From: Escherichia coli
GTDB lineage: Bacteria > Pseudomonadota > Gammaproteobacteria > Enterobacterales > Enterobacteriaceae
Assembly (NCBI RefSeq): GCF_024700885.2
Contig: NZ_CP117016.1
DNA length: 64,000 bases
Reading direction: 5' to 3' (one strand)
In this document: piece by piece, positions 1-17,708 of the stretch
How positions within the stretch are numbered: the first letter of the stretch is position 1
Layout of the letters: each line of letters starts with the position of its first letter
Made by a program: the position numbers and the translations under genes
The notes under the pieces: generated by a model
What the model saw: the letters and a program-made list of their open reading frames with translations, nothing else
What the model was told of the DNA's origin: nothing
Database searches by the model: none

Positions 1-350
1 GCTGCAAGGAACATAGTGTAGGTTGCCATATGCGAGGCAGGGAAAAAAAGTGTACAACCACCAATATACAGCGTCAGGCCAATTAAAATTGCCACCTTAT
101 AACTGGTCTTTTTAATCACAAGGGATGCTGGTATTGCAATTAAAAAATAACCTCCATAAAATGCGCTCTGCACCAATGCTGAAGCAAAGTTACTTAGCGA
201 AAATACACTTTTGAATTGAGTGATTAATATGTCATTTAATGCAGCTGCGCATCCCCATAGCGGGAATAAACACGATAACAAAATAAACTGGAACAAGGGA
301 GTCTTATTCAGATATCCATCAGGCATCTGAATGATGTTTTTATCGTTCAT
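1..350 (-). CDS. deoP: Deoxyribose permease (MFS, FucP-like), N-terminal part; gene continues past window start
   Basis: Minus-strand ATG at 350 gives MNDKNIIQMPDGYLNKTPLFQFILLSCLFPLWG..., FucP-like TM segments; lies 27 bp downstream of deoK. Confidence 0.65.
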   Translation of the reverse strand, partial: MNDKNIIQMPDGYLNKTPLFQFILLSCLFPLWGCAAALNDILITQFKSVFSLSNFASALVQSAFYGGYFLIAIPASLVIKKTSYKVAILIGLTLYIGGCTLFFPASHMATYTMFLA

Positions 351-377
351 AGTGCTACCTTTAACTGTGCAGGATGA

Positions 378-1298
378 TTATTCGTTTAAGGTTAAAAATT
401 CATTAAATTGTTCAATACTCGGATAAGATGATTGCGTACCTTTCCCTGTGACGCTGAAAGCGGCAAAGAGAGCGGCTTTTTTCAAAGCGGCTTCAACATC
501 ACCGCTTTGAACATAATAATGGGAAAAGCAACCAATAAATGCGTCACCAGCGCCACTAGTATCAACAGCATTTACTTTGAATGCAGGAACATGGACTTCC
601 TGATCGCGGGTCATCCATAATGCGCCTTTTTCGCTCATGGTAACAATAATATTGTTCAGCCCTTTATCAACTAACGAACGTGCGGCCAAACGAATATGAT
701 CATAAGTATCAACCGACATACCGGTTAATATTTCCAGTTCTGTTTCATTCGGGATAAAGAAATCACATTTGCAGGCATAAGACATATCTAACTCACGCAA
801 TGCCGGAGCCGGATTTAATAACACTTCAATACCATTTATCTTACCAAACTCAATCGCGTGGTAAACTGTTTCCAGTTGAACTTCCAGTTGTAAAACGATC
901 AATTTGCATTTTTTCAGATCTTCTGCAGCTCGATCGATATCTTCCGGGGAAAGAAATTTATTCGCTCCCTTAATTATTAATATACTATTGCTCGAGTTGG
1001 CATTAACAAAGATCGGTGCAACACCACTGCTGGTACAGGGGACCTTCTCAACATAAGTGGTATTAATTCCCCATGATTCAAGATTACGAATAGTATTATC
1101 CGCAAAAATATCATCACCTACTTTAGTCAGCATCAGGACTTTTGAATTCAATTTAGCCGCCGCCACCGCTTGATTAGCACCTTTCCCACCACATCCGATT
1201 TTGAAGGCAGGTGCTTCCAGAGTTTCTCCTTCTTTAGGCATCTGATTAGTGTAAGTAATGAGATCCACCATATTGGAACCAATAACTGCAATGTCCAT
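378..1298 (-). CDS. deoK: Deoxyribokinase, ribokinase/PfkB family (306 aa)
   Basis: MDIAVIGSNMVD... with GG motif (KIGCGGKGANQA) and C-terminal DTSGAGDAF anion-hole motif; start taken at internal ATG with AGAGG RBS. Confidence 0.8.
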   Translation of the reverse strand: MDIAVIGSNMVDLITYTNQMPKEGETLEAPAFKIGCGGKGANQAVAAAKLNSKVLMLTKVGDDIFADNTIRNLESWGINTTYVEKVPCTSSGVAPIFVNANSSNSILIIKGANKFLSPEDIDRAAEDLKKCKLIVLQLEVQLETVYHAIEFGKINGIEVLLNPAPALRELDMSYACKCDFFIPNETELEILTGMSVDTYDHIRLAARSLVDKGLNNIIVTMSEKGALWMTRDQEVHVPAFKVNAVDTSGAGDAFIGCFSHYYVQSGDVEAALKKAALFAAFSVTGKGTQSSYPSIEQFNEFLTLNE

Positions 1299-1603
1299 TT
1301 CACTACCTCTTATAAACTTTCGCATAACAATGGTATTTAAATAACATTAGCATGTTACTTTTGCATCATTTGTGACTGAGATCGCGATTAGCACATCAAC
1401 CCGATGTTTATTTAATAGACTTCCAGTCTCATCACTCAGGCCAACACTATCTAATCATAAGCAACCTAACAAGATTAGTGCCCAAAACTCAGCAGCCTAT
1501 ACCCTTTTCATTTCAAAGGGTCGGTCGTATAGTATGGTAATGAAAACAATGTTTACTAACGCCAAAATGTTATTTTTATAACATTCTTACGGAGAGAGAG
1601 TTG

Positions 1604-2386
1604 ATGGAAACGAAGCAAAAAGAGCGTATCCGACGTTTGATGGAACTGCTTAAGAAAACTGACAGAATCCATTTGAAAGACGCAGCGCGAATGCTGGAAG
1701 TTTCTGTAATGACTATTCGTCGCGATCTCCATCAGGAAGATGAACCTCTGCCACTGACCCTACTGGGTGGCTATATTGTAATGGTGAATAAACCCGCGCC
1801 ATCCATGCCAGTAATCCATGACGTTCCAAAAAATCATCGTGATGACTTACCTATTGCAATTCTGGCTGCCGGAATGGTTAATGAAAATGATCTGATCTTC
1901 TTTGATAATGGCCAGGAGATACCACTCGTTATAAGCATGATCCCGGATGCAATCACCTTCACCGGCATCTGTTACTCACATCGCGTCTTTGTTGCGTTGA
2001 ATGAAAAGCCTAATGTAACAGCAATACTTTGTGGTGGTACGTATCGTGCCAGAAGTGATGCTTTTTACGATGCCAGTAACTCTTCGCCATTAGACTCTCT
2101 CAATCCGCGAAAAATATTTATTTCCGCCAGCGGTGTGCATAATCACTTTGGCGTCAGCTGGTTTAACCCTGAAGATCTTGCCACTAAGCGTAAAGCGATG
2201 AACCGTGGACTACGGAAAATTTTGCTCGCCCGCCACGCGTTGTTCGATGAAGTGGCCTCTGCCAGCCTTGCACCGATCTCTGCATTTGACGTTCTGATTA
2301 GCGATCGTCCGTTACCGGCAGATTATGTTACGCACTGCCAGAATGGTTCTGTAAAGATCATTACACCTGATTCAGAAGACGAATGA
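1604..2386 (+). CDS. deoQ: DeoR-family transcriptional regulator, divergent from deoK
   Basis: N-terminal HTH (RIRRLMELLKKTDRIHLKDAARMLEVSVMTIRRDL) plus sugar-binding-type C-domain; GGAGAGAG RBS before ATG 1604. Confidence 0.75.
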   Translation: METKQKERIRRLMELLKKTDRIHLKDAARMLEVSVMTIRRDLHQEDEPLPLTLLGGYIVMVNKPAPSMPVIHDVPKNHRDDLPIAILAAGMVNENDLIFFDNGQEIPLVISMIPDAITFTGICYSHRVFVALNEKPNVTAILCGGTYRARSDAFYDASNSSPLDSLNPRKIFISASGVHNHFGVSWFNPEDLATKRKAMNRGLRKILLARHALFDEVASASLAPISAFDVLISDRPLPADYVTHCQNGSVKIITPDSEDE

Positions 2387-3431
2387 CTTACTGAAAAAAC
2401 ACCACAATCTTGTTAAACATCGTCGGATTGGACTGATTACGTTGCACTTTCACCACATATTCCAGCTTATCTATTTGGCTTATCACCTACTCCAGACGCT
2501 GGTCATCCTTGACCAGTAGCCAGATATGGCTTTTGTCGCAGTCCTGAATCGGCAGGCAGAGAATGTCTTCAACGTTAAGAGCGCGACGGGCAAAAGCCCA
2601 CAAAGGTGAGTCATTACACCCGGATGGTAAACAGGCACTTCCTTGTTGTAGAAGCCGTTATATTGCCCATAATGTCTGGGTTTTTAATGCATACTGGGTA
2701 ACAACCGGACGAATCTTCGAATATCACTGGCGCTGCCAGCCGGTTTGAATTCATCTCACAACCCTGCATAGAGCGAATCTCCTGCCTGCACGTCACTCCA
2801 CTCCATGGTATCAACTTCACACTCTTTATCTGCGGCTAGCTTCAGCCACCAGATAAGCATCGACTATGAAAGATGAGCCATGACAACATAACGTTGGTAA
2901 CGCTCTGACGCCTTAATGGAAGATGCCTGCCACCATAGGGAATGTAAACGACTGAAGTGTGGCCTTTAATGCCGTGAACGGCTCATGGTCTCCTGGCACG
3001 GTTGCCGCCCCAACCTGTAACAACATTCCACAGTACAATGTCTGCCAGAGTCAGAGCCTCCCATGCTTGTTGTAGTAACTCTACCAGTTACGAACATCCT
3101 TCCTCAAAATTGTTGTCATATCTCGCATGGAAGAAAAGATCCTGGCTAAGGAGCAACACACAACGTATTGCGGAACTTGCATATTTTTCCTGTAACTAGT
3201 GTATTACCACATATGGTAATAGCTACCTGTGTGGTTTCGCTGGATAGCAAGGGGATTTATTCGCAAGTAAAATGCCTGATAAAATACACGAATCTAGTAA
3301 TCATCAATATTTACTCTGGTCGAATGACGCGTGAAAGTGGACGGCCAACAGACGCAGTCAGTGATCTACAGCCTGTTGAATAAAACCCCGGATGCTTCCC
3401 CCGATTCTGCAAGTAATACTTCGGTTATTTG

Positions 3432-3537
3432 CACTATTTTATCCCTGTTGAATTTGGTTAAGCCGGTGCAGACGCGCCGGGAAACGCACACCTGAACCGG
3501 CACAATAAAATACAATACAACCCCCTGTTACTGGAGA
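3432..3537. repeat. 106-bp sequence, identical second copy at 17603-17708
   Basis: Exact match read by eye between the two loci. Confidence 0.85.
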
Positions 3538-3544
3538 AATGCCT

Positions 3545-3838
3545 GCGCCGGGGTCCGATATGGCAGTATTGTTGCAGCCTGCGGCATGGCTCAGGGGATG
3601 GATTTGATGGGCAATATGGCTCCGTTTATTCTGCGTGGTGTCACGCTGAAAGGGATTGATAGCGTCATGTTCGCGAAAGAGAAAAGAGCAGCAATCTGGC
3701 AACAGGCGGTATAGTATTTGCCAGAGTCCAGAATGGATAGTCTCACTACCGTTTATCCGCTCAGTGACGCCATCACTGTGGCTGAAAAACTTCTGAGTGG
3801 CGGAATTCGCGGTCGTGCAGTCATTCAATATAGCTAAT
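3545..3838 (+). pseudogene. C-terminal fragment of a YhdH/AcuI-like quinone oxidoreductase
   Basis: Translation ...VAACGMAQGMDLMGNMAPFILRGVTLKGIDSVMFAKEKRAAIWQQAV(stop)...LSGGIRGRAVIQYS matches the MDR oxidoreductase C-terminus; no N-terminal part, internal stop. Confidence 0.55.
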
Positions 3839-3894
3839 TAGATGGATGCCGAGCTCAGGCTTAGTATAATAAGTTTTAGGGGCTGCGGCCCCTT

Positions 3895-4551
3895 TTACTG
3901 GCCAGTTGTTGCTTCCTGAGAAGACTGATAGCGTACCGAGGTTTTGAAATAGCTCCAGAAGTCGTACACTGGCTCAGTAGAACAATATAGTTTGGAACGC
4001 ATTACCGCACCTTCCCAGCCACTCCAGAAAATAGCCGCCAGTTGTGTATTATTCATATTTGAACTTATTTCGCCTGAAGATAACGCGTCGGACAGGCAGG
4101 CCGCAACAAGTGCCTGCCAGCTCTCAAGAATATTCTGTAGTACTTTAATGAAGGATTGGGGAAGCCCCGGACTCTCCTGCATCATATTTCCAACCAGGCA
4201 GCCGCGGGTAAAATTGTATTTTTTAATCCCCTCACAGGCATCATTGATGAAATTTTCCAGACGTACCATTGGTGTGCAGGATGATTCATGTAGATGTTTT
4301 TTGAGTTTATGCTCGAAGAAACTGTCATAGGCGTTCAGAACGGTCTGAGCATAATCCTCTTTACTCTTAAAGTAGTAATAAAATGAGCCTTTAGGGACAT
4401 TGGCATTTTTAACAATGGCATCGACTCCCGTCGCAAGAAAACCATTCTGCGTCAGCAGTTCAAGGCCACTGCGGATCAGATCATTACGAGTATCTGCATA
4501 GGTACTTTCTGTCTTTCGCGGCCTTCCCCGGCCACGATTTTCGCCTGTCAT
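3895..4551 (-). CDS. TetR/AcrR-family transcriptional regulator
   Basis: N-terminal TetR HTH (RNDLIRSGLELLTQNGFLATGVDAIVKNANVPKGSFYYYFKSKE); GGAG RBS before internal ATG. Confidence 0.8.
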   Translation of the reverse strand: MTGENRGRGRPRKTESTYADTRNDLIRSGLELLTQNGFLATGVDAIVKNANVPKGSFYYYFKSKEDYAQTVLNAYDSFFEHKLKKHLHESSCTPMVRLENFINDACEGIKKYNFTRGCLVGNMMQESPGLPQSFIKVLQNILESWQALVAACLSDALSSGEISSNMNNTQLAAIFWSGWEGAVMRSKLYCSTEPVYDFWSYFKTSVRYQSSQEATTGQ

Positions 4552-4798
4552 GACCCATCTCCTACATTTTATTAACGCAAAAGAATAAGTGATTTTGCGC
4601 GAGAGCTTCAATCAGTTTATCCCCGCAGTGGCAAAGTGTTCGCTTTTGCCGACTGGACAGTGGCAGTGCCTGTCGCTACTGCGCCATCGCTGAACAGTGC
4701 AGAATTAGCAACGTTTGCTTTTGGCACAAAGCATACGCCCATTCTCACGCGAATGCTTTGCCCTTGACTTGCCAACAACCGAATCGCTTGCTCTGCAG

Positions 4799-6091
4799 CT
4801 ATGTTTTTTTATTAGAATATTCGCCACTAAATAAATTATAATAAGTTGATTTTATTAGATATCTATCAGAATCTATATGGTCAGCACGAGTTGCATGCTC
4901 TAATGTTTCAAATGCCAGGGTATGTGCGGCTTCAGCAAATATCCCTGGCCAACCTTTACTCAGCATCGACAGTCCTTTAAGGACTCTTATCTGAATCTCC
5001 CTCATACTGGCACCATCGCGCGCGACAGGTGAGAAAAAGTCTTCCAGTAGATCGTTATTCTGAAGTGGTGCAACATGTACTGAAGGATATTTCACTTCTA
5101 TTTCATCAGATTTATTCTGCGCGTAAGTGGAAAGTATACGAACACCTCTGCCAATGACATCAATGGCGGTTCCAGGATCGTTCACTGCAGGGGAAAGGGC
5201 CCGGCAGGCTATTTCGGCCATGACGCTAAGACAAAATCGAGGATCCTGAGCAAATGAACGTGCATCCGAGACAATAATCGTCTCAAGTAAATCGGTGCTG
5301 ATTGACGACTCCTGGCCCTGACTCAGGTACAAAACTGGCATGGACGGATGTATGAAACTGCCTGGCTGCGCCACGAGGTATACATGACGGGGATCATTGG
5401 TCAGCAGCTTGCTAAGTTTCACCATATCAATATATTCAACATAGCCAATCTTCTTCGGATAAACTGCAACCGTTCCTTTCGGCTGTTCATTGTTCTCAAG
5501 CCATGGATATCCGCCGAGACAGGGATTTCTTGCTCTCGCAATAAATGTTTCGATGGCCGCCTGTTCTACTTGTGCCGTTGTCTCACCAACCCTCCCCAGA
5601 GAGGTCAAATGCTGTATCCAGCGAAGCAATGTGATGAGGATTAAGGCAATGACAACCAGTGTGACAATGAATAAAATGACTCTCCCCCTTTCTCCATAAG
5701 CTCCCATATTGAGGGCAATAATCCCTACCAGACTGAAGAGAAAAGAACCGATGAAGGTGGCCAGTACATTTTGTGTGGTGACGTCTTCAACAACTAAACG
5801 CGTAGCTCTGGGAGTCACATTAGTAGTGGCTGAACCGTAGGCTGTGACCATGATACTCAGCGAAAATGTGGTCACTGCCAGCATACTCGATGCCAGTATG
5901 TTCAGAATGTTATCGACTGCTTCCGCACCAACCTTCACGGAAACCGACTCAGGTATCATTGATTTAAAAAGAATTGATAAAAGGGCCGTTATTATCGCGA
6001 CAATTGCGAATAACGTTGCCCTGAACCATAGTTTTTTAATTGTCTGCTTCAGCATCCATTTCCAGCGTGAAATCATTCTGCATTCCCTCAT
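4799..6091 (-). CDS. Membrane protein, DUF2254-like; start codon uncertain
   Basis: Several N-terminal TM helices followed by a soluble domain; family assignment from memory. Confidence 0.5.
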   Translation of the reverse strand: MRECRMISRWKWMLKQTIKKLWFRATLFAIVAIITALLSILFKSMIPESVSVKVGAEAVDNILNILASSMLAVTTFSLSIMVTAYGSATTNVTPRATRLVVEDVTTQNVLATFIGSFLFSLVGIIALNMGAYGERGRVILFIVTLVVIALILITLLRWIQHLTSLGRVGETTAQVEQAAIETFIARARNPCLGGYPWLENNEQPKGTVAVYPKKIGYVEYIDMVKLSKLLTNDPRHVYLVAQPGSFIHPSMPVLYLSQGQESSISTDLLETIIVSDARSFAQDPRFCLSVMAEIACRALSPAVNDPGTAIDVIGRGVRILSTYAQNKSDEIEVKYPSVHVAPLQNNDLLEDFFSPVARDGASMREIQIRVLKGLSMLSKGWPGIFAEAAHTLAFETLEHATRADHIDSDRYLIKSTYYNLFSGEYSNKKT

Positions 6092-6138
6092 ATTGCGGCC
6101 GGGATAATAATTGCCGCCCCCAGGACGGCATGTTGCTA

Positions 6139-8142
6139 TTAACGAACCAGGTGCAGGAAGTGCAGATGTTTTTCGTACTGGTCCAGTATGTCATTAATCA
6201 GCTGTTCCTGGTTCCAGCCCATCACATCATAATTTTGACCGCCTTCTTTGAGATAAACCTCAGCGCGATAATATCGATGTTGTTCAGTCTGCTGCTCATC
6301 ATTATCCATTGCGGCGAGCGCGAAGGTCGGTGAGATATACCCGCGAAGCCTCACTTCATATATAAAATTCAGCTCGTTGCCCAAATCGACTTCAAGACGA
6401 ATACGATCGTCGACTGCATCACTAATGTGGCTTATCGTCCCCTGCTTGTTCAGTTCCTCCTGAACCAGCGTCATGGCGGGCTGGATAACGTCGTCCATAA
6501 AACGTTTCACAAGAGATCGCTTCGGCAGATACGCGATATTGCGTAACCTTCTCTGCCAAGGAATTGGGTTACGTGCAGCCGTAGGAGCAATTGTCGCCAT
6601 GCTCAGGCTTTCACGCTTGGTCAAATCCCGGCGCAAAGCTTTTAAAAGTCCGTATATAGATATTAGTAAGATCACTGAGAAGGGCAATGCACTCGCTATT
6701 GTCACCGTTTGCAGCGCACTTAGCCCTCCGGCAAGGAGAAGCGCAATTGCAACAATGCCCATGAGCGAGGCCCAGAATATTCGCTGCCAGACGGGTGTGT
6801 TTGCCACTCCACCTGATGCCAGAGTATCCACAACCATTGCCCCCGAATCAGCAGACGTTACAAAGAAGACGATGACCATCGCCATTGCAATGAATGACAG
6901 CACAGAAGAGAACGGGAAATGCTCCAGGAAATTAAACAGGGCCAGCGCCACATCCTGCTGAACAGTATTGGCGAGGTCTGTGGCCCCCTGGTTCATAATG
7001 AGATAGATCGCGCTGTTACCAAACACCGTCATCCACATTAGCGTAAAACCCGCGGGAACAAACAGCACGCCGGTGACAAACTCGCGAATGGTTCGCCCGC
7101 GGGAGACTCGTGCGATGAACATCCCCACAAACGGCGACCATGAAAGCCACCATCCCCAGTACAGTAATGTCCAGCCCCCCAGCCAGTTGCTCGACTTGGG
7201 CTCATACGCGTAAAGGTTGAACGTTTTACTCACCAGTTCCGAAAGATAACCGCCCGTATTTTCCACAAATGACTTCAGCAGAAGCACGGTTGGTCCCAGA
7301 CACAGGACCAGCGCCAGGAGCAACAAAGCCAGACCCAGATTGAGTTCAGACAGGATACGTATTCCCTTATCCAGACCGGACACCACTGAAATCGTCGCTA
7401 ACCCCGTGATGACCACGATCAGAATTACCTGCACCGTTTCATTGATGGGCACCCCGAAAAGATGGTTCAAACCGGCATTCACCTGCAAAACACCGTAACC
7501 CAGTGATGTCGCAACGCCAAAGACCGTGCCTATAACAGCGAAAATATCAACCGCATGTCCTACAGGTCCGTATATGCGATCGCCAATAATGGGATAGAGT
7601 GCGGAGCGCAGAGTTAAAGGCAGACCGTGACGGTAACTGAAGAACGCCAGAATCAGCGCCACAATGGCATAAATTGCCCATGCGTGCAGTCCCCAGTGGA
7701 AAAAGGTCAGACGCATTGCTTCCTTAGCTGCCGCAACGGTTTCTGGAGTGCCAACGGGTGGCGAAAGATAATGCATTACAGGTTCGGCAACGCCAAAGAA
7801 CATCAGGCCGATCCCCATCCCTGCCGAAAAAAGCATCGCAAACCAGGAGTGGTAGCTGAAATCAGGCTGCGCATGGTCCGGGCCCAGCTTGATATCACCG
7901 TAGCGTGAGAGTCCAAGGAACGTGACACTCAGTAAAATCAGGGCCACAGCAAGGATGTAGAACCAGCTGGCATTCGTGAAGATTTGTTGCTGAAGTAGTT
8001 TAAAATTTTTGTCGGCGACATCCGGGAATACGGCGGCAAAGGCGACAAGAAGGAAAATTAGCAAAGCAGATGTAAAGAATACCGCTTTGTTAATCTGACT
8101 TGTAGACTTCTTTGGGATTGTATCATTTTCACTCATAATCAT
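6139..8142 (-). CDS. BCCT-family transporter (BetT-like) with long cytoplasmic C-terminal tail
   Basis: BCCT signature WTLLYWGWWLSWSPFVGMFIARVSRGRTIREF and BetT-like length (667 aa). Confidence 0.8.
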   Translation of the reverse strand: MIMSENDTIPKKSTSQINKAVFFTSALLIFLLVAFAAVFPDVADKNFKLLQQQIFTNASWFYILAVALILLSVTFLGLSRYGDIKLGPDHAQPDFSYHSWFAMLFSAGMGIGLMFFGVAEPVMHYLSPPVGTPETVAAAKEAMRLTFFHWGLHAWAIYAIVALILAFFSYRHGLPLTLRSALYPIIGDRIYGPVGHAVDIFAVIGTVFGVATSLGYGVLQVNAGLNHLFGVPINETVQVILIVVITGLATISVVSGLDKGIRILSELNLGLALLLLALVLCLGPTVLLLKSFVENTGGYLSELVSKTFNLYAYEPKSSNWLGGWTLLYWGWWLSWSPFVGMFIARVSRGRTIREFVTGVLFVPAGFTLMWMTVFGNSAIYLIMNQGATDLANTVQQDVALALFNFLEHFPFSSVLSFIAMAMVIVFFVTSADSGAMVVDTLASGGVANTPVWQRIFWASLMGIVAIALLLAGGLSALQTVTIASALPFSVILLISIYGLLKALRRDLTKRESLSMATIAPTAARNPIPWQRRLRNIAYLPKRSLVKRFMDDVIQPAMTLVQEELNKQGTISHISDAVDDRIRLEVDLGNELNFIYEVRLRGYISPTFALAAMDNDEQQTEQHRYYRAEVYLKEGGQNYDVMGWNQEQLINDILDQYEKHLHFLHLVR

Positions 8143-8246
8143 TTATTCCATTAATTAAATTCGCACTGGATAGAAGGTACTACCTCTCACAAAGTAGCAA
8201 AGTTCAACTGGCTATGCGGCGTTAATCGGAATGCATGGTGGAATGT

Positions 8247-9493
8247 TGAGGTGTACTGGCAATAGCGGACACTACCATTTGTTCTTTTTTTAAGCAGCCA
8301 TCTGATGATATTTTTCCCTGAAGGCTGCCGGGGAGATATTCCCCAGACGAGAGTGACGACGCTGACGATTGTAGAAAATCTCAATGTATTCCCGTATTAC
8401 TGAGATGGCTTCATCCCGGTTATTAAAACGATAGTGGCTCAGGCTCTCATTTTTCAGCGTTCCCCAGAAGCTTTCCATCGGAGCGTTGTCGTAACAGTTA
8501 CCTTTACGCGACATTGATGTTTTCAGACCAAACTGCTCCTGTATGACACGGTAATCGTATGCGCAGTACTGTGAACCTCGATCAGAGTGGTGGATTAGCC
8601 CGGCAGGTGGGCGCTGGCTCCTGAGCGCCATAAACAGGGCTTTACCTGTCAGCTCTTTTGTCATGCGCTCTCCCATGGCGTAGCCGACAATTTCGCACGT
8701 ATAAACATCTTTGATGCCAGCGAGGTACAACCATCCCTCCTGTGTGGCAACATACGTCAGGTCCGCCACCCAGACCTGATTTGGTGCTGTAGGAGCGAAC
8801 GTCTGGTTCAGCAGATTTGGCGCAACTGGCAGATTGTGGTTCGAGTTCGTAGTCGCTCTGAACTTGCGTTTCTGCTTACAGCGTAGCCTTAGCTCCTTAC
8901 GAAGACGTGCCAGTCGGTCACGACCAACGATGATGCCATTCTCTGCCAGCTCCGTCTGGAGCTGCCGGGTTCCATATGTTTCGCGAGTGCGGATATGCGC
9001 CACCTTAATCTCCAGTTTTAGCCGCTCATCACTTTGTTTTCTGTCTGAGGGTTCATGCTGTACCCAGTTGTAATAACCGCTCCTGGATACACCAAATACC
9101 TGACACATCGCTTCAATGGGAAATTGTTGTCGCCATTGTTCGATTAACGCGTATTTTTCAGCGACTCCTGTGCAATTTAATATATCTCGCTCAAGGCGAG
9201 CTTCATTTAACGCCTTACGCAGTTGCAGAATTTCAGATTCCAGTTCAGCCACCGTGCGGGAACCAGGAGTACCGAGCCCTTTTCTGGCGGCGGTAACCCA
9301 TTGTCCTAAAGTGCCTTCAGGAAGAGATAATCGGGAAGCACCTTCACTGATCGAAAGTTGATTTTCAAGAACCGTTCTGACAGCTTCGGCTTTGAACTCT
9401 TTAGAGTAACGTTGGGTTTTTCTGCTCATTATTAGCTCCTTCTGATGCCATTCTATTTCAGGAAGGAGTGTCCGTTAAACTCAGGCTACCTCA
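8247..9493 (-). mobile_element. IS3-family insertion sequence (IS600-like), about 1.25 kb
   Basis: Imperfect terminal inverted repeats TGAGGT...CGGACACT at both ends flanking the transposase ORF. Confidence 0.7.
8290..9429 (-). CDS. IS3-family transposase, OrfA and OrfB fused in one 379-aa frame
   Basis: OrfA-like HTH and leucine zipper (LQLRKALNEARLERDIL) continuous with DDE OrfB (DLTYV, HSDRGSQY, GNCYDNAPMESFW). Confidence 0.85.
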   Translation of the reverse strand: MSRKTQRYSKEFKAEAVRTVLENQLSISEGASRLSLPEGTLGQWVTAARKGLGTPGSRTVAELESEILQLRKALNEARLERDILNCTGVAEKYALIEQWRQQFPIEAMCQVFGVSRSGYYNWVQHEPSDRKQSDERLKLEIKVAHIRTRETYGTRQLQTELAENGIIVGRDRLARLRKELRLRCKQKRKFRATTNSNHNLPVAPNLLNQTFAPTAPNQVWVADLTYVATQEGWLYLAGIKDVYTCEIVGYAMGERMTKELTGKALFMALRSQRPPAGLIHHSDRGSQYCAYDYRVIQEQFGLKTSMSRKGNCYDNAPMESFWGTLKNESLSHYRFNNRDEAISVIREYIEIFYNRQRRHSRLGNISPAAFREKYHQMAA

Positions 9494-9575
9494 TTGGTTC
9501 CCACTACTTATTTGGTGGACACCACTTTGTCTAATTCGTCAGATTCTGACCAGACGGTTCAGGCTGTACGCTTAC
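9494..9575. repeat. 82-bp IS66-family terminal fragment (solo end), identical to 17521-17602
   Basis: Ends in revcomp GTAAGCGTACAGC; identical to the left end of the IS66 copy at 15315-17602. Confidence 0.75.
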
Positions 9576-9609
9576 AAACAACTAGTGGAAATACTTGTAC
9601 TTTATAATT

Positions 9610-10554
9610 TCAAGGGTACGGGTCCGCTTCGTTTGATTTGCGTGTTTTTAACAATTTTAAAACCCAGACATACTGTTCCGGATGTGGCCCCACCAAAATT
9701 TCCACTGTTTTGTTCATTTGTCGGGCAATCATTTTATTGTCCGCGCTGGCAATGCAAGCATCCATTGGTGGCCGAATTTCAATAGTCAGGAGATGTTTTT
9801 TTTCATCATAAACCGGGAAAAGTGGTATAATCATAGCCTGACTGATGTTCATCAGACGTCCAATGATTGGTAATGTCGCTTTATAGGTCGCAAAAAAATC
9901 AGCAAATTCACTGTATTCAGGACCATGATCCTGATCTGGGAGGTAATATCCCCAGTATCCCTGGCGTACTGACTGAATAAATGGTTTTATCCCATCCTCC
10001 CGGGCATGTAAGCGCCCCCCGAATTTACGCCGTACTGAATTCCAGACATAATCAATCACTGGATTTCGTTGCTGATGAAACATGGCGGCCATTTTTTTTC
10101 CCTGAGCTGCCAGCAACATTGCAGGAATATCCACGCTCCAGCCATGGGGAACCAGAAAAATCACATTTCTATTATTGTGTCGAATTTCCTCAAGAATTTC
10201 GAGGCCTTTCCAGAACACTCGTTTCTGGAACTTTTCCGGACCACGAATTGCCAGTTCTGCCATCATCACTATGGATTGCAATGCTGTGGCAAACATTTTG
10301 TCGACAATTATTTCCCGTTCTGTATCACTCTTTTCTGGGAAACAAAGCGATAAATTAATCGTCGCCCTGCGACGAGCTTTTTTGCTCAATCTGCCCACCC
10401 AACGCCCTATTTTTGCCAAGACAGGATCTCTGAATGAAGGGGGAAACATTGAAATACCTGCAATCATTCCCAAAAGGAACCATGTAGACCAGTAAACAGG
10501 GGAAAGGTAATTTTTCTTAAATTCAGGAATAAACTCAGATTTATATTTTTTCAT
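9610..10554 (-). CDS. Lipid A secondary acyltransferase, LpxM/MsbB family (msbB2-like paralog)
   Basis: Lauroyl/myristoyl acyltransferase motifs (FLVPHGWSVD, YLPDQDHGPE); virK fragment immediately upstream as in shf-virK-msbB2 modules. Confidence 0.8.
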   Translation of the reverse strand: MKKYKSEFIPEFKKNYLSPVYWSTWFLLGMIAGISMFPPSFRDPVLAKIGRWVGRLSKKARRRATINLSLCFPEKSDTEREIIVDKMFATALQSIVMMAELAIRGPEKFQKRVFWKGLEILEEIRHNNRNVIFLVPHGWSVDIPAMLLAAQGKKMAAMFHQQRNPVIDYVWNSVRRKFGGRLHAREDGIKPFIQSVRQGYWGYYLPDQDHGPEYSEFADFFATYKATLPIIGRLMNISQAMIIPLFPVYDEKKHLLTIEIRPPMDACIASADNKMIARQMNKTVEILVGPHPEQYVWVLKLLKTRKSNEADPYP

Positions 10555-10618
10555 TATTTAGTGCGAATGCCTCTACCAAAATTATCATTACTGTTTTATT
10601 CAGAGAATACATCAAACC

Positions 10619-11233
10619 TTAATTTAAATTCTGATGTTCTGAGTGTACAGGATATGCATCCAAAGAGCGGATAGTAGTTTCATGGATATAATCCAGCAAA
10701 GCGTATCGTTTTCGGTACTCAGAGCGTTTTTTACTGGCTATATCGCTTAGCGGCTTTCGAATCACCTGGGTTGGTAATCTGTACCAGTCACCACAGGTTT
10801 TTCCTGCTACAGACTCCCAGAAATCACTATAGACCGCAACAAAGGTTTTGCGTTTCTGATACCAGTATCTCAATTGCCGGAAAACATGACTGTGCTCACT
10901 GACTGCCAGACACTCAGAGATATTGCAAGCTTTCATCAACGCACAAAATGCTTCAAAAATAATCCGTTTTGGGAAAATCCCATAACAGGCCCGGGTTGCG
11001 CACCGAATAACATCAGGTCCGGTATTTTTAGGGGCTCCCTGTAATCCGCCAATAAAAGCAATGTGTCCATTTTGAGTCAGAATGACTGAAAATGTTAACC
11101 GGGCAATAACTGTTTTATTGTAAAACAATGACAACATCAACTCTCCTTCCCGGTCAAAACCACTGGGAGAACACTGGATATCAAAATTCTCTCCATCTTT
11201 CCCGATGAATTGGACTAATGATACCGATTTTTG
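10619..11233 (-). pseudogene. virK: virK-like (DUF535) gene, C-terminal part only, cut by IS1
   Basis: Open frame runs from the IS1 boundary (...FIGKDGENFDIQCSP...) to the stop at 10619; N-terminal half absent. Confidence 0.55.
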
Positions 11234-11288
11234 GGTAATGCTGCCAACTTACTGATTTAGTGTATGATGGTGATTTTAAGGTGCTTGC

Positions 11289-11564
11289 GTGGCTTCCATT
11301 TCCATCAGATGTCCTTCCTGCTCCGCTACTGAAGGCGTGGTGCGTAACGGCAAAAGCACTGCCGGACATCAGCGCTATCTCTGCTCTCATTGCCGTAAAA
11401 CATGGCAACTACAGTTCACTTACACCGCCTCTCAGCCCGGTACGCACCAGAAAATCATTGATATGGCCATGAATGGCGTCGGATGTCGCGCCAGTGCACG
11501 CATTATGGGCGTTGGCCTCAACACGGTTTTACGTCACTTAAAAAACTCAGGTCGCAGTCGGTAA
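11289..11564 (+). CDS. insA: IS1 InsA
   Basis: [40 protein letters not shown]... Confidence 0.9.
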
Positions 11565-11986
11565 CCTCGCGCATACAACCGGGCAGTGATGTGATTGTCT
11601 GCGCTGAAATGGACGAACAGTGGGGCTACGTCGGTGCTAAATCACGTCAGCGCTGGCTGTTTTACGCGTATGACAGGATACGGAGGACGGTTGTGGCGCA
11701 CGTCTTCGGTGAACGCACTCTGGCCACACTGGAGCGTCTTCTGAGCCTGCTGTCGGCCTTTGAGGTCGTGGTATAGATGACGGATGGCTGGCCGCTGTAT
11801 GAATCACGCCTGAAGGGAAAGCTGCACGTTATCAGCAAGCGTTACACTCAGCGCATTGAGCGACATAATCTGAATCTGAGACAACATCTGGCAAGGCTGG
11901 GACGGAAGTCACTGTCGTTCTCAAAATCGGTGGAGCTGCATGACAAGGTCATCGGGCATTATCTGAACATAAAACACTATCAGTAA
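11483..11986 (+). pseudogene. insB: IS1 InsB frame with premature stop (TAG at 11774-11776)
   Basis: Copy 2 reads ...VVIWMTDGW (TGG); copy 1 reads ...VVV(stop)MTDGW (TAG). Confidence 0.85.
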
Positions 11987-12071
11987 GTTGGAGTCATTAC
12001 CTCCTCCCGAACTCAAAGCTATCATACAGATAATTACTGGTTAACCCTATATAGGGCATTTTAAAGTGTTG

Positions 12072-12408
12072 TGATCTTACCCAGCAATAGTGGACACGCG
12101 GCTAAGTGAGTAAACTCTCAGTCAGAGGTGACTCACAAGACAAAACAGTTTCAACCAGTAAAAAAACGTAAACACCATTCGCATGAATTTCGTAGTTAAG
12201 ATCTGAAGCTTGCAGAATGCATCGGTGTTACTGCCGGAGTCCGTGAACTTAGTCTGCATGAATCACCACAGCTTTACATCTGTCGCAGTAAACAGCAAAA
12301 TCAGCAAACTTACTTAATTATATCGAGTGCGATTACAATCGCTGGCGATGGTACAGTTGGTGTGGCGGTCTCAGTCCGGAACAATTTGAAAATCAGAATC
12401 TCACTTAA
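12072..12408 (+). mobile_element. IS3 remnant with large internal deletion (left end and orfA 5' joined to orfB 3' end; right IR missing)
   Basis: TGATCTTACCCAGCAATAGTGGACACGCGGCTAAGTGAGTAAACTCTCAGTCAGAGGTGACTCACA then ...[33 protein letters not shown] tail. Confidence 0.7.
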
Positions 12409-12746
12409 AACGGCATCCATTTTACAAAAGATGGCCGTCTGTGTATTTATAATGAATACCTTCTACATGTTTAGAGTGCATAATCCACGACAAGGCGATA
12501 TCCTAAAAATTAGCTAGCAGGCAACTTTGATGGCATAGATAATGTTTTTAGTAAAAAAGAGTTGACTTAATATAATACAGCCTCTTCCTACATAAGAAGG
12601 AATGTGCTCACAAAAAAAAACATTAGTCTGCTTCCTGTTCTTACAATAATCAGTATTATGTATTTTATTTATATAGCAAAATATGCTTGTTACACCTGTC
12701 ATAATTAGGCATGGTAAAATTATTGACTGAACCCTGGGGGAGAAAG

Positions 12747-13004
12747 ATGCACAGTGATTATTATAATATGGTTTTTGGTGAAAAATTGGCCAATATTTTA
12801 TATGAAGCTAACTCTCAATTTTTTTACGAGAGAAATGTCATAGAAGAGGCAGTCAACGCTTTATTCTGTGAGCGTGAAATAATAAACAACAAGAACATAA
12901 TAAAGAAGCTGATGTTCTTTTTGTCAGATGTTAATCACACCAAGAAAGATGTTGTTCAGAGCGCACTTAATATTATCATTGACATTACATCAGGTGATAT
13001 TTGA
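12747..13004 (+). CDS. Hypothetical protein (85 aa), AT-rich
   Basis: ORF with GGGGGAG RBS; no recognisable family. Confidence 0.3.
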   Translation: MHSDYYNMVFGEKLANILYEANSQFFYERNVIEEAVNALFCEREIINNKNIIKKLMFFLSDVNHTKKDVVQSALNIIIDITSGDI

Positions 13005-13264
13005 GATTTTACATAAAAGATAATCTCTCAAGGAGTCTTATCTGAAAACGAAATATATAGTCCCTCTCGTTTTGTAATATCGATTGGCTTTGTTGAATCG
13101 GTTACGTACCCCGGAGCCGGTCATATTTTCAGGTAATACACACGCTTTCAGACATTTCGGCTTTCGTCATTTTGGTATCATGGGCATAGCTTCTGCTACC
13201 TGACCATCATAATCACGCAGCTTCAGTGAAGCAGTGACCACCTGTTTAACCCGGTGTATCGTTA

Positions 13265-13465
13265 TGATCTTATCCAGCAATAATGGACACGCGGCTAAGT
13301 GAACCGCCCCGGGTTTCCTGGAGAGTGTTTTATCTGTGAACTCAGGCTGCCAGATCATCGTTTCCGATGGAAGCATAATAAGCTTTTTCTGCTTCTGCCG
13401 GTGGGATATGGCCCTGCCTTTCCAGCAATCGTCGATTGTTATACCAGTCCACCCACGTGAGTGTG
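13265..13465 (-). mobile_element. IS3-family right-end remnant (transposase C-terminus plus terminal IR)
   Basis: Minus strand encodes ...QYDELTTLTWVDWYNNRRLLERQGHIPPAEAEKAYYA then IR ending ...TGTCCATTATTGCTGGATAAGATCA. Confidence 0.65.
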
Positions 13466-13754
13466 GTCAGCTCATCATACTGACACGTGCATTACCCCTA
13501 CCGCGATAATGCAACCGTACAATATAGGGCGTTTCCTAAACGCAGCCCTCATCACTCCAATCCAACAAGACACAGCATTTTTGATCACGAAGAAAGACAA
13601 ATAATTTCCGTAAATGTTTCCGTTGTTACAAATAACAACAGTGTTTTACATTTCTTTGGCCTCAGGCCCGCGCATGTTGCCATTCGATGTCATTTTCCTG
13701 ACTCGTTTCTTCTTTATGGTGTAGTGTGATCTTCACTTTATGGATGCTAACAAT

Positions 13755-15113
13755 ATGAAAAGAAAAATTATTCCCGTGCTAATCGGTTGTACGCTCTCTT
13801 TCTCTGCCCTGGCGGCACAACCTACGGCTGAGCGCTATGTCGTCAGTTTTCCAGAAGGCACGCACGTGAACTACGCCGGCGCATTTGCCAGTGCATTCCC
13901 GAACGGCCTTCCGGTTGGGATAGGTTCTGGCCTGCTGTTCACCGGTAAACAGGGCGATGCCCTGACATTCGCAACCATTACCGATCGCGGTCCGAACGCG
14001 GATTCACCGAAAGAGGGGAAAAACGAAACTAAAATTTTCGTTACGCCAGATTTCGCGCCGCTGCTGATGACGATTCGTGTACAAAACGGCAAAGCGGAGG
14101 CCATCGATCCCCGTCCTCTGCATGACGATAAAGGCGCGATCAACGGTCTGCCGCTGGCAAGCGACGTGATTGGCTCCACCAATGAAGTGGCCTTCAGCGA
14201 CACGTTACATAGACTGAAGGGGGATAATCGCGGGCTGGATACGGAAGGGATCACTCCGGATGGTAAAGGAGGTTACTGGCTGTGCGATGAGTATGGCCCG
14301 TTCCTGATTAACATCGACAGTAAAGGGAAAATCCTGGCAATCCACGGTCCGCAGGCGGCGGAAGAGGAAAAAGCGATTGCGGGCGGTTTGCCAAATATCC
14401 TCAAATGGCGTCAGGCGAACCGCGGCTTTGAAGGCCTCACCCGTATGCCGGACGGGCGTATTATTGTCGCCGTGCAAAGTACGCTGGATATCGACGCTAA
14501 GAGCAAGAAAAAGGCGCTGTTTACGCGTCTGGTGAGCTTCGATCCGGCAAGCGGAAAAACCGCGATGTACGGTTATCCCATCGACAGCGCGGCCTACAGC
14601 AAAAACAGCGACGCTAAAATCGGAGACATCGTGGCGCTCGATAACCAGCACATCCTGCTGATCGAACAGGGAAGAGATAAAAACAACAGAATGCGTAACC
14701 TGATTTACGAGGTCGATCTCAATAAGGCGAGCGACCTGTCAGGCTTCGACAAGCCGGGTGAGTATCCGGAGTTTGATGATGAGAAAACCCTGTCACAGCG
14801 CGGCATTACCCTTGCGCAGAAAACGCAGGTTGTTGATCTGCGCTCCTTGGGCTGGCAGCAGGAGAAGGCTGAAGGGTTGGCGCTGATCGACAGCAAAACG
14901 CTGGCGGTGGCGAACGATAACGACTTTGGCGTGAAGGTGGCGATGCAACATCCGGTCGAGGGCAAGACATTCAAGGATTATCGGGTGAACGCGGAAGGAA
15001 AGCTGACGCTTGACGACAAGCAGGTTGAAACGACCCTCAGAGTGAAGCCACTGGAGAAACCGGAGTCTGACAGTGAACTGTGGATTGTGACGCTGCCGGA
15101 AGCGTTGAAATAA
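13755..15113 (+). CDS. Secreted phytase-like / esterase-like beta-propeller protein (452 aa)
   Basis: Signal peptide (MKRKIIPVLIGCTLSFSALAAQP); repeated D-x-G/beta-strand blocks; family assignment from memory. Confidence 0.5.
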   Translation: MKRKIIPVLIGCTLSFSALAAQPTAERYVVSFPEGTHVNYAGAFASAFPNGLPVGIGSGLLFTGKQGDALTFATITDRGPNADSPKEGKNETKIFVTPDFAPLLMTIRVQNGKAEAIDPRPLHDDKGAINGLPLASDVIGSTNEVAFSDTLHRLKGDNRGLDTEGITPDGKGGYWLCDEYGPFLINIDSKGKILAIHGPQAAEEEKAIAGGLPNILKWRQANRGFEGLTRMPDGRIIVAVQSTLDIDAKSKKKALFTRLVSFDPASGKTAMYGYPIDSAAYSKNSDAKIGDIVALDNQHILLIEQGRDKNNRMRNLIYEVDLNKASDLSGFDKPGEYPEFDDEKTLSQRGITLAQKTQVVDLRSLGWQQEKAEGLALIDSKTLAVANDNDFGVKVAMQHPVEGKTFKDYRVNAEGKLTLDDKQVETTLRVKPLEKPESDSELWIVTLPEALK

Positions 15114-15351
15114 GTTTATAAGGTACGGACAGCAGTATCGCTTAGTTTTTCAAATTCATGTATGTGAACAATATTGGGGTTCCGGCGTAGACCCCCAATG
15201 AAAGCGTCACCACGTGAAAACATGCCTGCACGGTTTACACGTCATCCCATGGTGGCAGCCGGTTAACTTTCCTGCGCCACCAGTGGAAAAAGGCCATAAG
15301 CAGTCCGAACAAAAGTAAGCGTACAGCGAGGGCCGTATTGACGGGGATGTG

Positions 15352-16736
15352 TTATTCAGCTGGCAGTGCTATGCGCCACGGAAGCAGTTCGCTGACCCGG
15401 TTGACCGGCCAGTCTGCTATGACGCCAGGCACATGGCGAAGGTAGCTTTCTGGATCCACGTCATTCAGTTTGCACGTCCCGATCAGGCTGTACAGTAGCG
15501 CTCCCCGCTCACCACCATGGCCAGAGCCGAAGAACAGGGTCTTCATCTTTTCACGCAACCAGCTTTCCAGGGATTTCAACAGCGGTTTCGTTTTTCGCTG
15601 ACGTTCAGCAAGCCGCTGCTCTGCCGGCATTCCCCTTATATCCGCCTCTATGGCGTACAACTGACCGATCTGCTCCAGGGCTTCTTCCGTCAGTGCTGAC
15701 GGGATGCGGACGTGCACATCGTGGATCTTTCGGCGGGCATGAGCCCAGCAGGCAGCTTCCGTTATCCCACCATTGCGATACAGCTCGTTGAACCCGGCGT
15801 ACGCATCCGCTTGCAGCACACCGCTGAAGCAAGCAAGATGAGTCTGCGGATGGATGCCTTTTCTGTCCGGGCTGTAAGCGAACCTCACTGCAGGTGCCAA
15901 CGCTGACCCGGCATTGCGGTCATCACGAACATACGCCCACAACCGCCCGGTCTTCGTCTTCTTATTACCCGGCAGCAGTACCTGGACCGGGGTATCATCG
16001 GCATGGAGTTTGCCGTCAGTCATGACATAGCCATGAAGCGCCTCTTCCAGCGGAGACAGCAGCCGGCAGCATGCATCCACCCAGCCCGACAGCAGTGAAC
16101 GGCTCAGCTCCACACCTTGCCGGCCGTATATTTCTGACTGGCAATACAGCGGGGTGTGCTCTGCATACTTCGAGGTCAGCACGCGGGCCAGCAGCCCCGG
16201 TCCGGCGATACCCCGCTCGATGGGCCGCGAAGGTGCAGGTGCCTGCACGATGGCATCGCACTGAGTACAGGCATGTTTTTCCCGTACCGTCCGGATAACC
16301 CGGAAGGCGCTACGCATCAACTCCAGCTGTTCGGCGGTATCCTCGCCCAGATAGCTCAGTGAACCGCCGCAGTTCGGGCAGCACGGCGCCGCAGGCAACA
16401 GTCGCTTTTCGTCACGGGGTAGTGATTCAGGGAACGGCTTACGGGTGCGGGTCTGACGCAACGGACGCTGTACTGCCGGGTCATACACCCTACCAGTCAG
16501 CGTATCGCTCTCTTTCTGAAGCCGGTTCAGATCGGCTTCCATTTGTGCGATACGGCGGGAGACTTTTTCGGAACGACTGCCGAAGTTCATCCGGCGGAGT
16601 TTATCCAGCTGCGCCTGCAGATGTCTATTTCGCGCTCCCGGTTGCTCAGCTTTTCCTGCAGGGCGTGGATCAGCGCTTCCTGTTCGGCCAGGCGCTGTTT
16701 CAGCAGGAAGATGTCGTCAGAAGAGATTTCGTTCAT
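15352..16736 (-). pseudogene. IS66 TnpC transposase with frameshift near the N-terminus
   Basis: MNEISSDDIFLLKQRLAEQEALIHALQEKLSNRERE... continues in another frame as ...QLDKLRRMNFGSRSEK...; shift lies around 16600-16630. Confidence 0.75.
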
Positions 16737-16785
16737 AAGCCCGTATTTTACCGGGCTTATTCTGTGACAACCAGGATAAAGAGAT

Positions 16786-17133
16786 TTACAGCATGGTCAG
16801 GGAGGTCAGCAGCCGCTTGGGCTGTCGCCAGTCGATACCTTCCAGCAGCATCGCCAGCTGCGCCTGCGTAAGGAACACTTTGCCATCACGGGCTGACGGC
16901 CAGGCGAAGCGCCCACGCTCCAGCCGTTTGGTCAGGAGGCACAGTCCGTCACCGGTGGACCACAGCAGTTTAACCTGACTGCCGCTGCGGCCCCGGAAAA
17001 TGAAAACATGGCCGGACATGGGATCGTCTTTCAGCGCCGTCTGTACTTTCGCAGCCAGGCCGTTGAAGCCATTTCTCATATCGGTGATACCGGCAACCAG
17101 CCAAATTTTGGTCCCGGAAGGTAACGGGATCAT
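16786..17133 (-). CDS. IS66 Orf2 (TnpB)
   Basis: MIPLPSGTKIWLVAGITDMRNGFNGLAAKVQ... Confidence 0.85.
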   Translation of the reverse strand: MIPLPSGTKIWLVAGITDMRNGFNGLAAKVQTALKDDPMSGHVFIFRGRSGSQVKLLWSTGDGLCLLTKRLERGRFAWPSARDGKVFLTQAQLAMLLEGIDWRQPKRLLTSLTML

Positions 17134-17468
17134 CGCTTCAGTTCCTGTATCAGCAGAGTCAGGAGCTTTTCGCTGACATTGCCATTGAAGCGGAGCGTCC
17201 CGTGCCGGAACGTTACCTCACAGCTGATACTGAGGGTTTCCGGGTCCTCTGCGAGCGATTCTGGCTGTTCGGCAGCTGCATCGGGAGTCACAGGAAGTAG
17301 CTGGGGGCTCTCTGAAGAAGGTAATAGCAGCTTTCCCTCGCGCCATTGTTGTCGCCATTTGAACAACAGATTGGCGTTAATGCCATTTTCAAGAGCAAGT
17401 TTTGAGATGGATATCCCGGGTTCACAGGAGGCAGCAACGAGCTGCTGTTTAAATTCGGGAGGATAATT
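17130..17468 (-). pseudogene. IS66 Orf1 (TnpA) without a canonical in-frame ATG start
   Basis: Frame encodes ...PEFKQQLVAASCEPGISISKLALENGINANLLFKWRQQWREGKL but is preceded by TGA with no ATG. Confidence 0.6.
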
Positions 17469-17602
17469 AGGGCAGCCTTTTCACCTGCCGGGAGTCACAT
17501 TTTTCTGCATATCTGACACTTTGGTTCCCACTACTTATTTGGTGGACACCACTTTGTCTAATTCGTCAGATTCTGACCAGACGGTTCAGGCTGTACGCTT
17601 AC

Positions 17603-17708
17603 CACTATTTTATCCCTGTTGAATTTGGTTAAGCCGGTGCAGACGCGCCGGGAAACGCACACCTGAACCGGCACAATAAAATACAATACAACCCCCTGTT
17701 ACTGGAGA
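17603..17708. repeat. Second copy of the 106-bp sequence at 3432-3537, abutting the IS66 terminus
   Basis: Exact match. Confidence 0.85.

Follow-up and report, generated by a model that had tools for sequence, protein, structure and literature searches.

Structure and identity of the element

A copy of the insertion sequence ISEc8, which belongs to the IS66 family, was found on the minus strand at positions 15315 to 17602 of the 64-kb stretch of Escherichia coli DNA analyzed in this study (called the window below). The copy is 2288 bp long, compared with 2442 bp for full-length ISEc8. The inverted ends, each of which carries GTAAGCGTACAGC, have their outermost bases at 15315 and 17602, and the boundaries proposed in an earlier note on this DNA were thus exact. 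The inverted repeats are of the IS66 type and start with 5'-GTAAGCG. They match each other at 22 of 30 positions, including 13 bp of perfect identity. The tnpA-proximal repeat (IRL; 17573 to 17602, minus strand) is identical in four full-length references, and alignment of the other end to the same references showed an intact IRR (15315 to 15344, minus strand). Further, the first 108 and the last 113 bases of the window copy are identical to those of all four references, in agreement with the statement of the earlier note that both terminal repeats are intact.

The genes tnpA, tnpB, and tnpC lie consecutively on the minus strand, and the ATG of tnpB overlaps the stop codon of tnpA (ATGA), an arrangement that is characteristic of IS66. 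Pfam matches were obtained for tnpA (HTH_Tnp_1), tnpB (TnpB_IS66), and tnpC (LZ_Tnp_IS66, zf-IS66, DDE_Tnp_IS66, and DDE_Tnp_IS66_C). In addition, the NCBIfam models IS66_TnpB and IS66 TnpA were matched within the element.

As references for ISEc8, four full-length copies from plasmids of E. coli, E. albertii, and Salmonella were used. The 2442-bp plasmid copies are named "IS66-like element ISEc8 family transposase" in RefSeq. The window copy showed 99.7% identity to full-length ISEc8 over reference positions 1 to 2070 and 99.1% over positions 2219 to 2442, corresponding to approximately 99.6% nucleotide identity across the shared 2288 bp. Because of this identity to copies so named by RefSeq, the element was regarded as ISEc8; judged by near-identity of sequence, it can be assigned to this species, which makes the IS66 family membership given in the earlier note more specific. 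Among 5,426 complete E. coli genomes, 4,063 contained a match to the element (megablast), and copies identical over all 2288 bp were present in six complete E. coli chromosomes.

The tnpA and tnpB genes

The tnpA pseudogene (17130 to 17510, minus strand) begins with an ATG at 17510-17508 and is interrupted by a premature TGA at 17483-17481. Codon 10, which is CGA in every reference copy, is TGA in the window copy. The defect is a nonsense mutation, and the start codon is not missing. TnpA contains no methionine besides the initiating one, hence no in-frame ATG lies 3' of the TGA, as had been pointed out in the earlier note. Intact tnpA encodes an ATG-initiated protein of 126 aa in the four full-length ISEc8 copies and in the orthologue of E. 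coli 55989. In the window copy, the frame past the TGA retains a Pfam HTH_Tnp_1 match, and RefSeq annotates a 94-aa "transposase" from an ATA start (approximately 17130-17414). In the protein read from this ATA, the initial third of the HTH domain is missing.

The tnpB gene (16786 to 17133, minus strand) is intact, and its product is identical to the TnpB protein of full-length ISEc8 (WP_000612591.1).

Lesions in tnpC

The tnpC gene, which encodes the transposase, is a pseudogene (15352 to 16736, minus strand) damaged by a -1 frameshift, by the in-frame loss of 153 bp, and by missense changes. It is split over two frames, an ORF of 49 aa beginning with MNEISSDD (16587-16736) and an ORF of 412 aa beginning with MNFGSRSEK (15352-16590). 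Alignment to the 55989 orthologue and the four full-length ISEc8 copies revealed the loss of a single base, which changes GACCAT to GACAT. The site is at position 16623 (IS reference position 980), where the plus strand has a single G instead of the GG of the full-length copies. The frame is lost past codon 38 and meets a stop 11 codons later, at residue 49; the N-terminal frameshift suspected in the earlier note was thereby located. RefSeq also labels tnpC as "frameshifted," as seen in strain MLI114, the closest relative. In the repaired TnpC frame, R199C replaces an arginine found in all 68 aligned sequences and L488P a residue that is hydrophobic in all 68. W285R is a further missense change at a conserved residue.

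The junction of the 153-bp deletion lies at 15534 to 15538 (minus strand), in the 5-bp microhomology CCTGT, and the missing bases correspond to reference positions 2066 to 2218. Together with the base lost at the frameshift, the deletion accounts for the whole shortfall of 154 bases relative to full-length ISEc8. It takes out 51 residues of TnpC, from 402 to 452 (SRHSELAKAF...IDNNIAENALRAVSLGRKNFL). Full-length TnpC matched the Pfam domain DDE_Tnp_IS66 over positions 1-283 of 284 with 355.7 bits, whereas the deleted form matched positions 1-222 of 284 with 258.2 bits.

Conservation was assessed using the full-length protein and 67 homologues (68 sequences, 34-52% identity) from a cluster-representative library, for which a first set of close relatives at ≥74% identity had been set aside. 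D247 was invariant (68 of 68 sequences), D311 was shared by at least 90%, and E438 was found in 66 of 68; E364 was also near-invariant. The deleted block contains the conserved residues A410, Y413, G428, D433, N434, N435, E438, R442, G447, R448, K449, and N450, and spans the conserved DNNxAExxR motif of the DDE domain. Judging from their conservation, from their position in the domain, and from the IS66 literature, which we take to support E438 as the catalytic glutamate, D247, D311, and E438 probably constitute the catalytic triad, the glutamate of which is deleted in the window copy. The 153-bp deletion thus probably inactivates TnpC on its own account. IS66 has been placed in the RNase H-like superfamily (Majorek et al., 2014).

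The window copy is a member of IS66 by descent and not by function: its TnpC lacks a complete DDE_Tnp_IS66 domain, and the 38 codons at the N terminus are read in a frame other than that of the remainder. An autonomous IS encodes all three transposition proteins intact, and this copy does not. Owing to the nonsense codon, the frameshift, and the 153-bp deletion, it can make neither TnpA nor a working transposase. In the earlier note, the copy had been described as doubly inactivated. Both lesions named there are real, but the number was an undercount, since the 153-bp deletion of tnpC is a third lesion and is found in all copies at the locus. Among the three, the deletion, which probably removes a catalytic residue, is probably also the oldest.

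Distribution of the lesions and sister copies

The variants were counted in the 5,426 complete E. coli genomes, the TGA and the 1-bp loss using queries with every 28-base seed across the variant. The junction of the 153-bp deletion was detected in 2,209 genomes, at 2,397 places in total (at most three per genome, 58 on plasmids), and in 2,180 genomes the junction was accompanied by the same DUF6404-side flank as in the window. The TGA of tnpA was detected in 165 genomes and the tnpC frameshift in 152, both on chromosomes only and at up to two places per genome counted. Expressed as shares of the complete E. coli genomes, the deletion is carried by approximately 41%, and the sublineage with the TGA and the frameshift represents approximately 3%. 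Since the same variants recur in 165 and 152 genomes, the TGA and the 1-bp loss were considered inherited mutations.

The corresponding island site holds a deleted ISEc8 copy in E. coli 55989, O26:H11 strain 11368, and RS571, with the junctions, the deletion, and the flanks in common with the window. In these three copies, tnpA and tnpC are open and the 461-aa TnpC is annotated as intact in RefSeq, whereas the window copy has the TGA and the frameshift in addition. The closest genome was that of MLI114, which, except for a single indel, was 100% identical to the window across 24 kb and contained six places matching the window element.

The earlier note had allowed for the frameshift and the missing start to be normal features of this subfamily. 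The copy would then be functional, for example through a programmed frameshift in tnpC or a non-ATG start of tnpA. Frameshifting of the programmed -1 type is widespread among IS1 and IS3 elements, and the RefSeq call of a 94-aa protein with an ATA start is in line with such a reading. The alignment to reference members, which the earlier note had suggested, nevertheless refuted it: in the four full-length ISEc8 copies as well as the 55989 orthologue, tnpA starts with ATG and is uninterrupted, and tnpC is a single open frame without a shift. The lesions of the window copy are therefore genuine. In addition, the variants are restricted to 152 and 165 of the 5,426 genomes, the shifted tnpC frame runs for only 11 codons before its stop, and the HTH domain of the ATA-started ORF is incomplete by a third. 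A functional copy with programmed frameshifting and an alternative start is virtually out of the question.

Sequencing or assembly errors, such as a miscalled base or short homopolymer, were likewise rejected as the origin of the lesions. The frameshift does lie in a two-base run (GG to G), a context prone to indel errors, but 152 complete genomes, assembled independently of each other, share the 1-bp loss, and 165 share the TGA. Moreover, six chromosomes were 100% identical over the 2288 bp, and the 153-bp deletion was present in 2,209 genomes, which makes an artifact extremely unlikely.

Flanking sequences and island context

On the IRR side, the element is flanked by the 3' remnant (approximately 80 bp; 15235 to 15312, minus strand) of a DUF6404 gene that was cut by the IS. 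This gene is intact on F-type plasmids, and its 5' 268 bp were found nowhere in the 64-kb window. At the IRL, the edge of the IS coincides exactly with the start of a 106-bp sequence (17603 to 17708, plus strand), which is repeated at 3432-3537. In other E. coli chromosomes, the left neighbor, a single copy of the 106-bp sequence, and the right neighbor are uninterrupted; the region from 3538 to 17602 can therefore be viewed as an insertion of 14 kb that has the IS at its edge. An 82-bp remnant of the ISEc8 left end, 100% identical to reference positions 1 to 82, was identified within this region (9494 to 9575, minus strand). Beyond this remnant, no other IS66-family sequence, and hence no helper copy, was present elsewhere in the 64-kb window.

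The 8-bp flanks of the window copy differ from each other (AAATAGTG and TTTTGTTC), and no 8-bp direct target duplication was present at its boundaries. Insertion of IS66-family elements yields 8-bp target duplications, and flanks that do not match have been described as the mark left when one IS66 copy recombines with another (PMC6778807). Other ISEc8 copies, compared at the same element boundaries as the window copy, were bordered by perfect 8-bp duplications: full-length copies on an E. albertii plasmid (GGAATAAT) and a Salmonella plasmid (CCTTAAAC), a copy in the yehR gene of O26 (GAACGGCA), and a copy in yehR of O157 (AAGCAATC). Because the two flanks derive from unrelated loci, a DUF6404 gene of plasmid type and DNA of the island, and the 8-bp duplication is absent, the present position of the window copy is best explained by recombination or rearrangement of ISEc8 copies. 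The sequence at its borders points to placement by IS-mediated recombination and not by simple insertion.

The absent duplication, the 153-bp deletion, and the three missense changes R199C, L488P, and W285R had all been overlooked in the earlier note.

The yehR copy and possible mobilization in trans

In EHEC of serogroups O26, O103, and O111, a deleted ISEc8 copy was identified within yehR, bordered by a perfect 8-bp duplication. In O26:H11 strain 11368, the yehR copy and the island copy are 100% identical, with no differences over 2289 bp. At 12 places in this genome, sequences matched the right end of ISEc8, compared with at most three places per genome for the deletion junction. The same insertion in yehR occurs in strain 03_3013, for which a full-length ISEc8 carried by a plasmid was among the matches listed. 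Both genomes contain candidate helper copies. No full-length ISEc8 was found at the exact yehR site in any of the 5,426 genomes. Some O157:H7 strains do carry a full-length ISEc8 in yehR, but this is a separate insertion located 52 bp away and has a duplication of its own.

These data suggest, as the most economical reading, that a full-length ISEc8 copied the deleted element in trans into yehR. Residual activity of the deleted TnpC is a possible alternative, and so is gene conversion over the whole length of an existing insertion. Conversion of a full-length yehR insertion is weakened by the count of 0 of 5,426 genomes with such a copy at the site and by the 52-bp offset of the O157:H7 insertion.

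Deleted copies on plasmids were also considered as possible products of repeated transposition, and this was rejected. All seven plasmid copies examined keep the phytase-side junction, and six of the seven are truncated at IS position ~1312, beside IS1. From this shared junction and common truncation, the plasmid copies were regarded as passengers of the flanking DNA. Outside yehR, all deleted copies examined share one context (7/7 plasmid copies), and mobilization of the deleted form must therefore be rare at best. Among approximately 2,400 deleted copies, yehR was the single secondary site found.

The earlier note had proposed that the copy could still be mobilized in trans by another IS66. 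This is a reasonable proposal, and the yehR copy of O26:H11 strain 11368 supports it for the form with the 153-bp deletion, but not for the exact window copy. The window copy could plausibly move only with TnpA and TnpC, and possibly TnpB, supplied by full-length ISEc8. Taken as a whole, there is about an even chance that the deleted ISEc8 present in approximately 41% of genomes is catalytically dead and was copied in trans once, from the island into yehR in the O26/O103/O111 EHEC lineage, and that the window copy is still a mobilizable substrate by virtue of its intact ends.

Proposed history and significance

The window copy is very probably a degenerate, non-autonomous ISEc8 that has been passed on vertically at a single location in a chromosomal island of mosaic make-up, with staged decay, recombined flanks, and movement in trans only. 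In the simplest history, in which the decay took at least two stages, an early in-frame loss of 153 bp between the 5-bp microhomologies would have removed residues 402 to 452 of TnpC. Much later, one sublineage would have gained the nonsense mutation at codon 10 of tnpA and the base loss in tnpC. The outcome would be a copy with neither TnpA nor a working transposase, in which tnpB and both ends are kept.

A different account is that the copy has been retained because it is useful, either through co-option of tnpB or through a dead TnpC of the deleted ancestor that inhibits or regulates full-length ISEc8. Truncated transposases serve as inhibitors or regulators in other systems. Such a role would be consistent with the decay of tnpA and tnpC next to a 348-bp tnpB that still matches the tnpB of active copies exactly, and with the occurrence of the deleted form at one site in 2,180 genomes of many lineages, often with tnpC open. 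However, the copies diverge by only ~0.3-0.5%, so an unmutated tnpB of this length is expected by chance. The tnpC frame of the window copy is destroyed, so an inhibitor cannot be made here, and vertical inheritance of an immobile element accounts for the persistence more simply. We consider retention for a useful function very unlikely, and vertical inheritance of a decaying element is the preferred account.

The element is confirmed as an ordinary decayed IS copy of a kind already known, within known IS biology. The copy itself has little wider importance, as IS copies in decay are commonplace and this tnpC is already marked in RefSeq as a pseudogene with a frameshift. The 461-aa "IS66 family transposase" that is annotated as intact in more than 2,000 E. 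coli genomes, which is without the most conserved part of the catalytic domain, is probably better treated as a pseudogene. As a stable, vertically inherited marker of the island, the element may also be of use for lineage tracing, for which the deletion, the stop, and the frameshift might serve as nested markers. Further, the yehR copy of O26 suggests, as a naturally occurring case, that the ends of IS66-family elements are open to use in trans.

Comparison with known elements

Full-length ISEc8, which occurs on plasmids of E. coli, E. albertii, E. fergusonii, and Salmonella and on EHEC chromosomes, has the same ends, gene order, ATGA overlap, and TnpB as the window copy. Unlike full-length ISEc8, the window copy lacks 153 bp of tnpC and an 8-bp target duplication, and carries the stop at codon 10 of tnpA, the -1 frameshift of tnpC, and the substitutions R199C, W285R, and L488P.

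IS66 of Agrobacterium and IS679 of E. coli are the founding and best-studied members of the IS66 family. Traits in common are the three-ORF organization, the 8-bp target duplication seen with other ISEc8 copies, and mismatched flanks after recombination between IS copies, although they are different elements and the window copy is non-functional. In the work of Han and colleagues from 2001, transposition of IS679 reportedly required all three ORFs.

A close parallel in kind is with non-autonomous IS derivatives that are mobilized in trans, such as MITE-like and internally deleted forms, which likewise combine intact ends with a defective transposase gene. In contrast to these derivatives, the window copy is nearly full length (94%), and the deleted form is not an amplified family. 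For the deleted form of ISEc8, the yehR copy, which has a target duplication and lies in a genome that also contains full-length copies, may be a comparable insertion made in trans.

The 14-kb segment between the repeats

Sequence comparison identified a perfect 106-bp direct repeat in the window (3432-3537 and 17603-17708), with the second copy starting at 17603, directly against the outermost base of the left ISEc8 terminus. In the DFL.5 chromosome, the left neighbour, a single 106-bp copy and the right neighbour were contiguous at 100%, and the same uninterrupted arrangement with one copy was found in the chromosomes of strains 89-3156, NGF1, and BH100 (97.3%). Given this single-copy arrangement in other E. 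coli chromosomes, the region at 3538-17602 looks like a 14-kb insertion between the repeats. The segment contained TetR, DUF2254, BCCT, IS3, lpxM, virK', IS1, phytase-like, DUF6404', and ISEc8.

A second trace of ISEc8 was present in this segment, namely an 82-bp left-end scrap on the minus strand (9494-9575), which was 100% identical to reference positions 1-82. The scrap ended abruptly beside an IS3-family element (about 8290-9429) and faced lpxM/virK', a gene pair familiar from virulence plasmids. Over 24 kb, one 1-bp indel (window 12611) was the only difference between the window and the closest complete genome, that of strain MLI114 (NZ_CP117013.1). The next closest strain, 200164, was also from Mali, and most of its differences fell at 23-29 kb, around the Ag43 gene.

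Annotation of the damaged transposition genes

For strains MLI114 and F9792, RefSeq lists a 94-aa "transposase" (WP_413464955.1), corresponding to about 17130-17414 of the window on the minus strand. This call sits downstream of the tnpA stop codon, and the codon matching its start is ATA in the window sequence; the call reads as the broken tnpA being rescued through homology, and not as a genuine gene. The deleted form of ISEc8 (with a 153-bp in-frame tnpC deletion) encodes a 461-aa TnpC that RefSeq labelled as an intact "IS66 family transposase", as in comparison loci L002 (6867-8252) and L020 (1424-2809); the same gene in about 2000 genomes is annotated in this way. Since this protein is missing 51 residues from the best-conserved stretch of the DDE domain, its gene is probably a pseudogene, one that goes unflagged because the reading frame is preserved across the deletion.

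Distribution of ISEc8 in other loci

Many plasmids shared a fragment in which the right-hand 977 bp of the deleted ISEc8 were accompanied by the DUF6404 remnant and the phytase-like gene; it was seen at loci L005, L014, L015, L017, L018, and L019, on IncFIB/IncHI1B plasmids from E. coli, E. fergusonii, and Salmonella. The constant break in ISEc8 at one IS position (about 1312) and the usual presence of an adjoining IS1 suggest what looks like a single passenger segment mobilised by IS1.

Two independent ISEc8 insertions, 52 bp apart and identical in orientation, were found in yehR: the deleted form in O26/O103/O111 (L021, O26:H11 11368; duplication GAACGGCA) and the full-length form in some O157:H7 strains (L023, FRIK944; duplication AAGCAATC). 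This gene may be a local hot spot for ISEc8 insertion.

Residue 199 of TnpC was R in all 68 homologues (68/68). R199C and L488P were already present in one otherwise full-length ISEc8 TnpC, that of plasmid pMS20654 (L007), which suggests that some "512-aa" copies may also be impaired. Both substitutions were common to this full-length copy and the deleted ISEc8 lineage.
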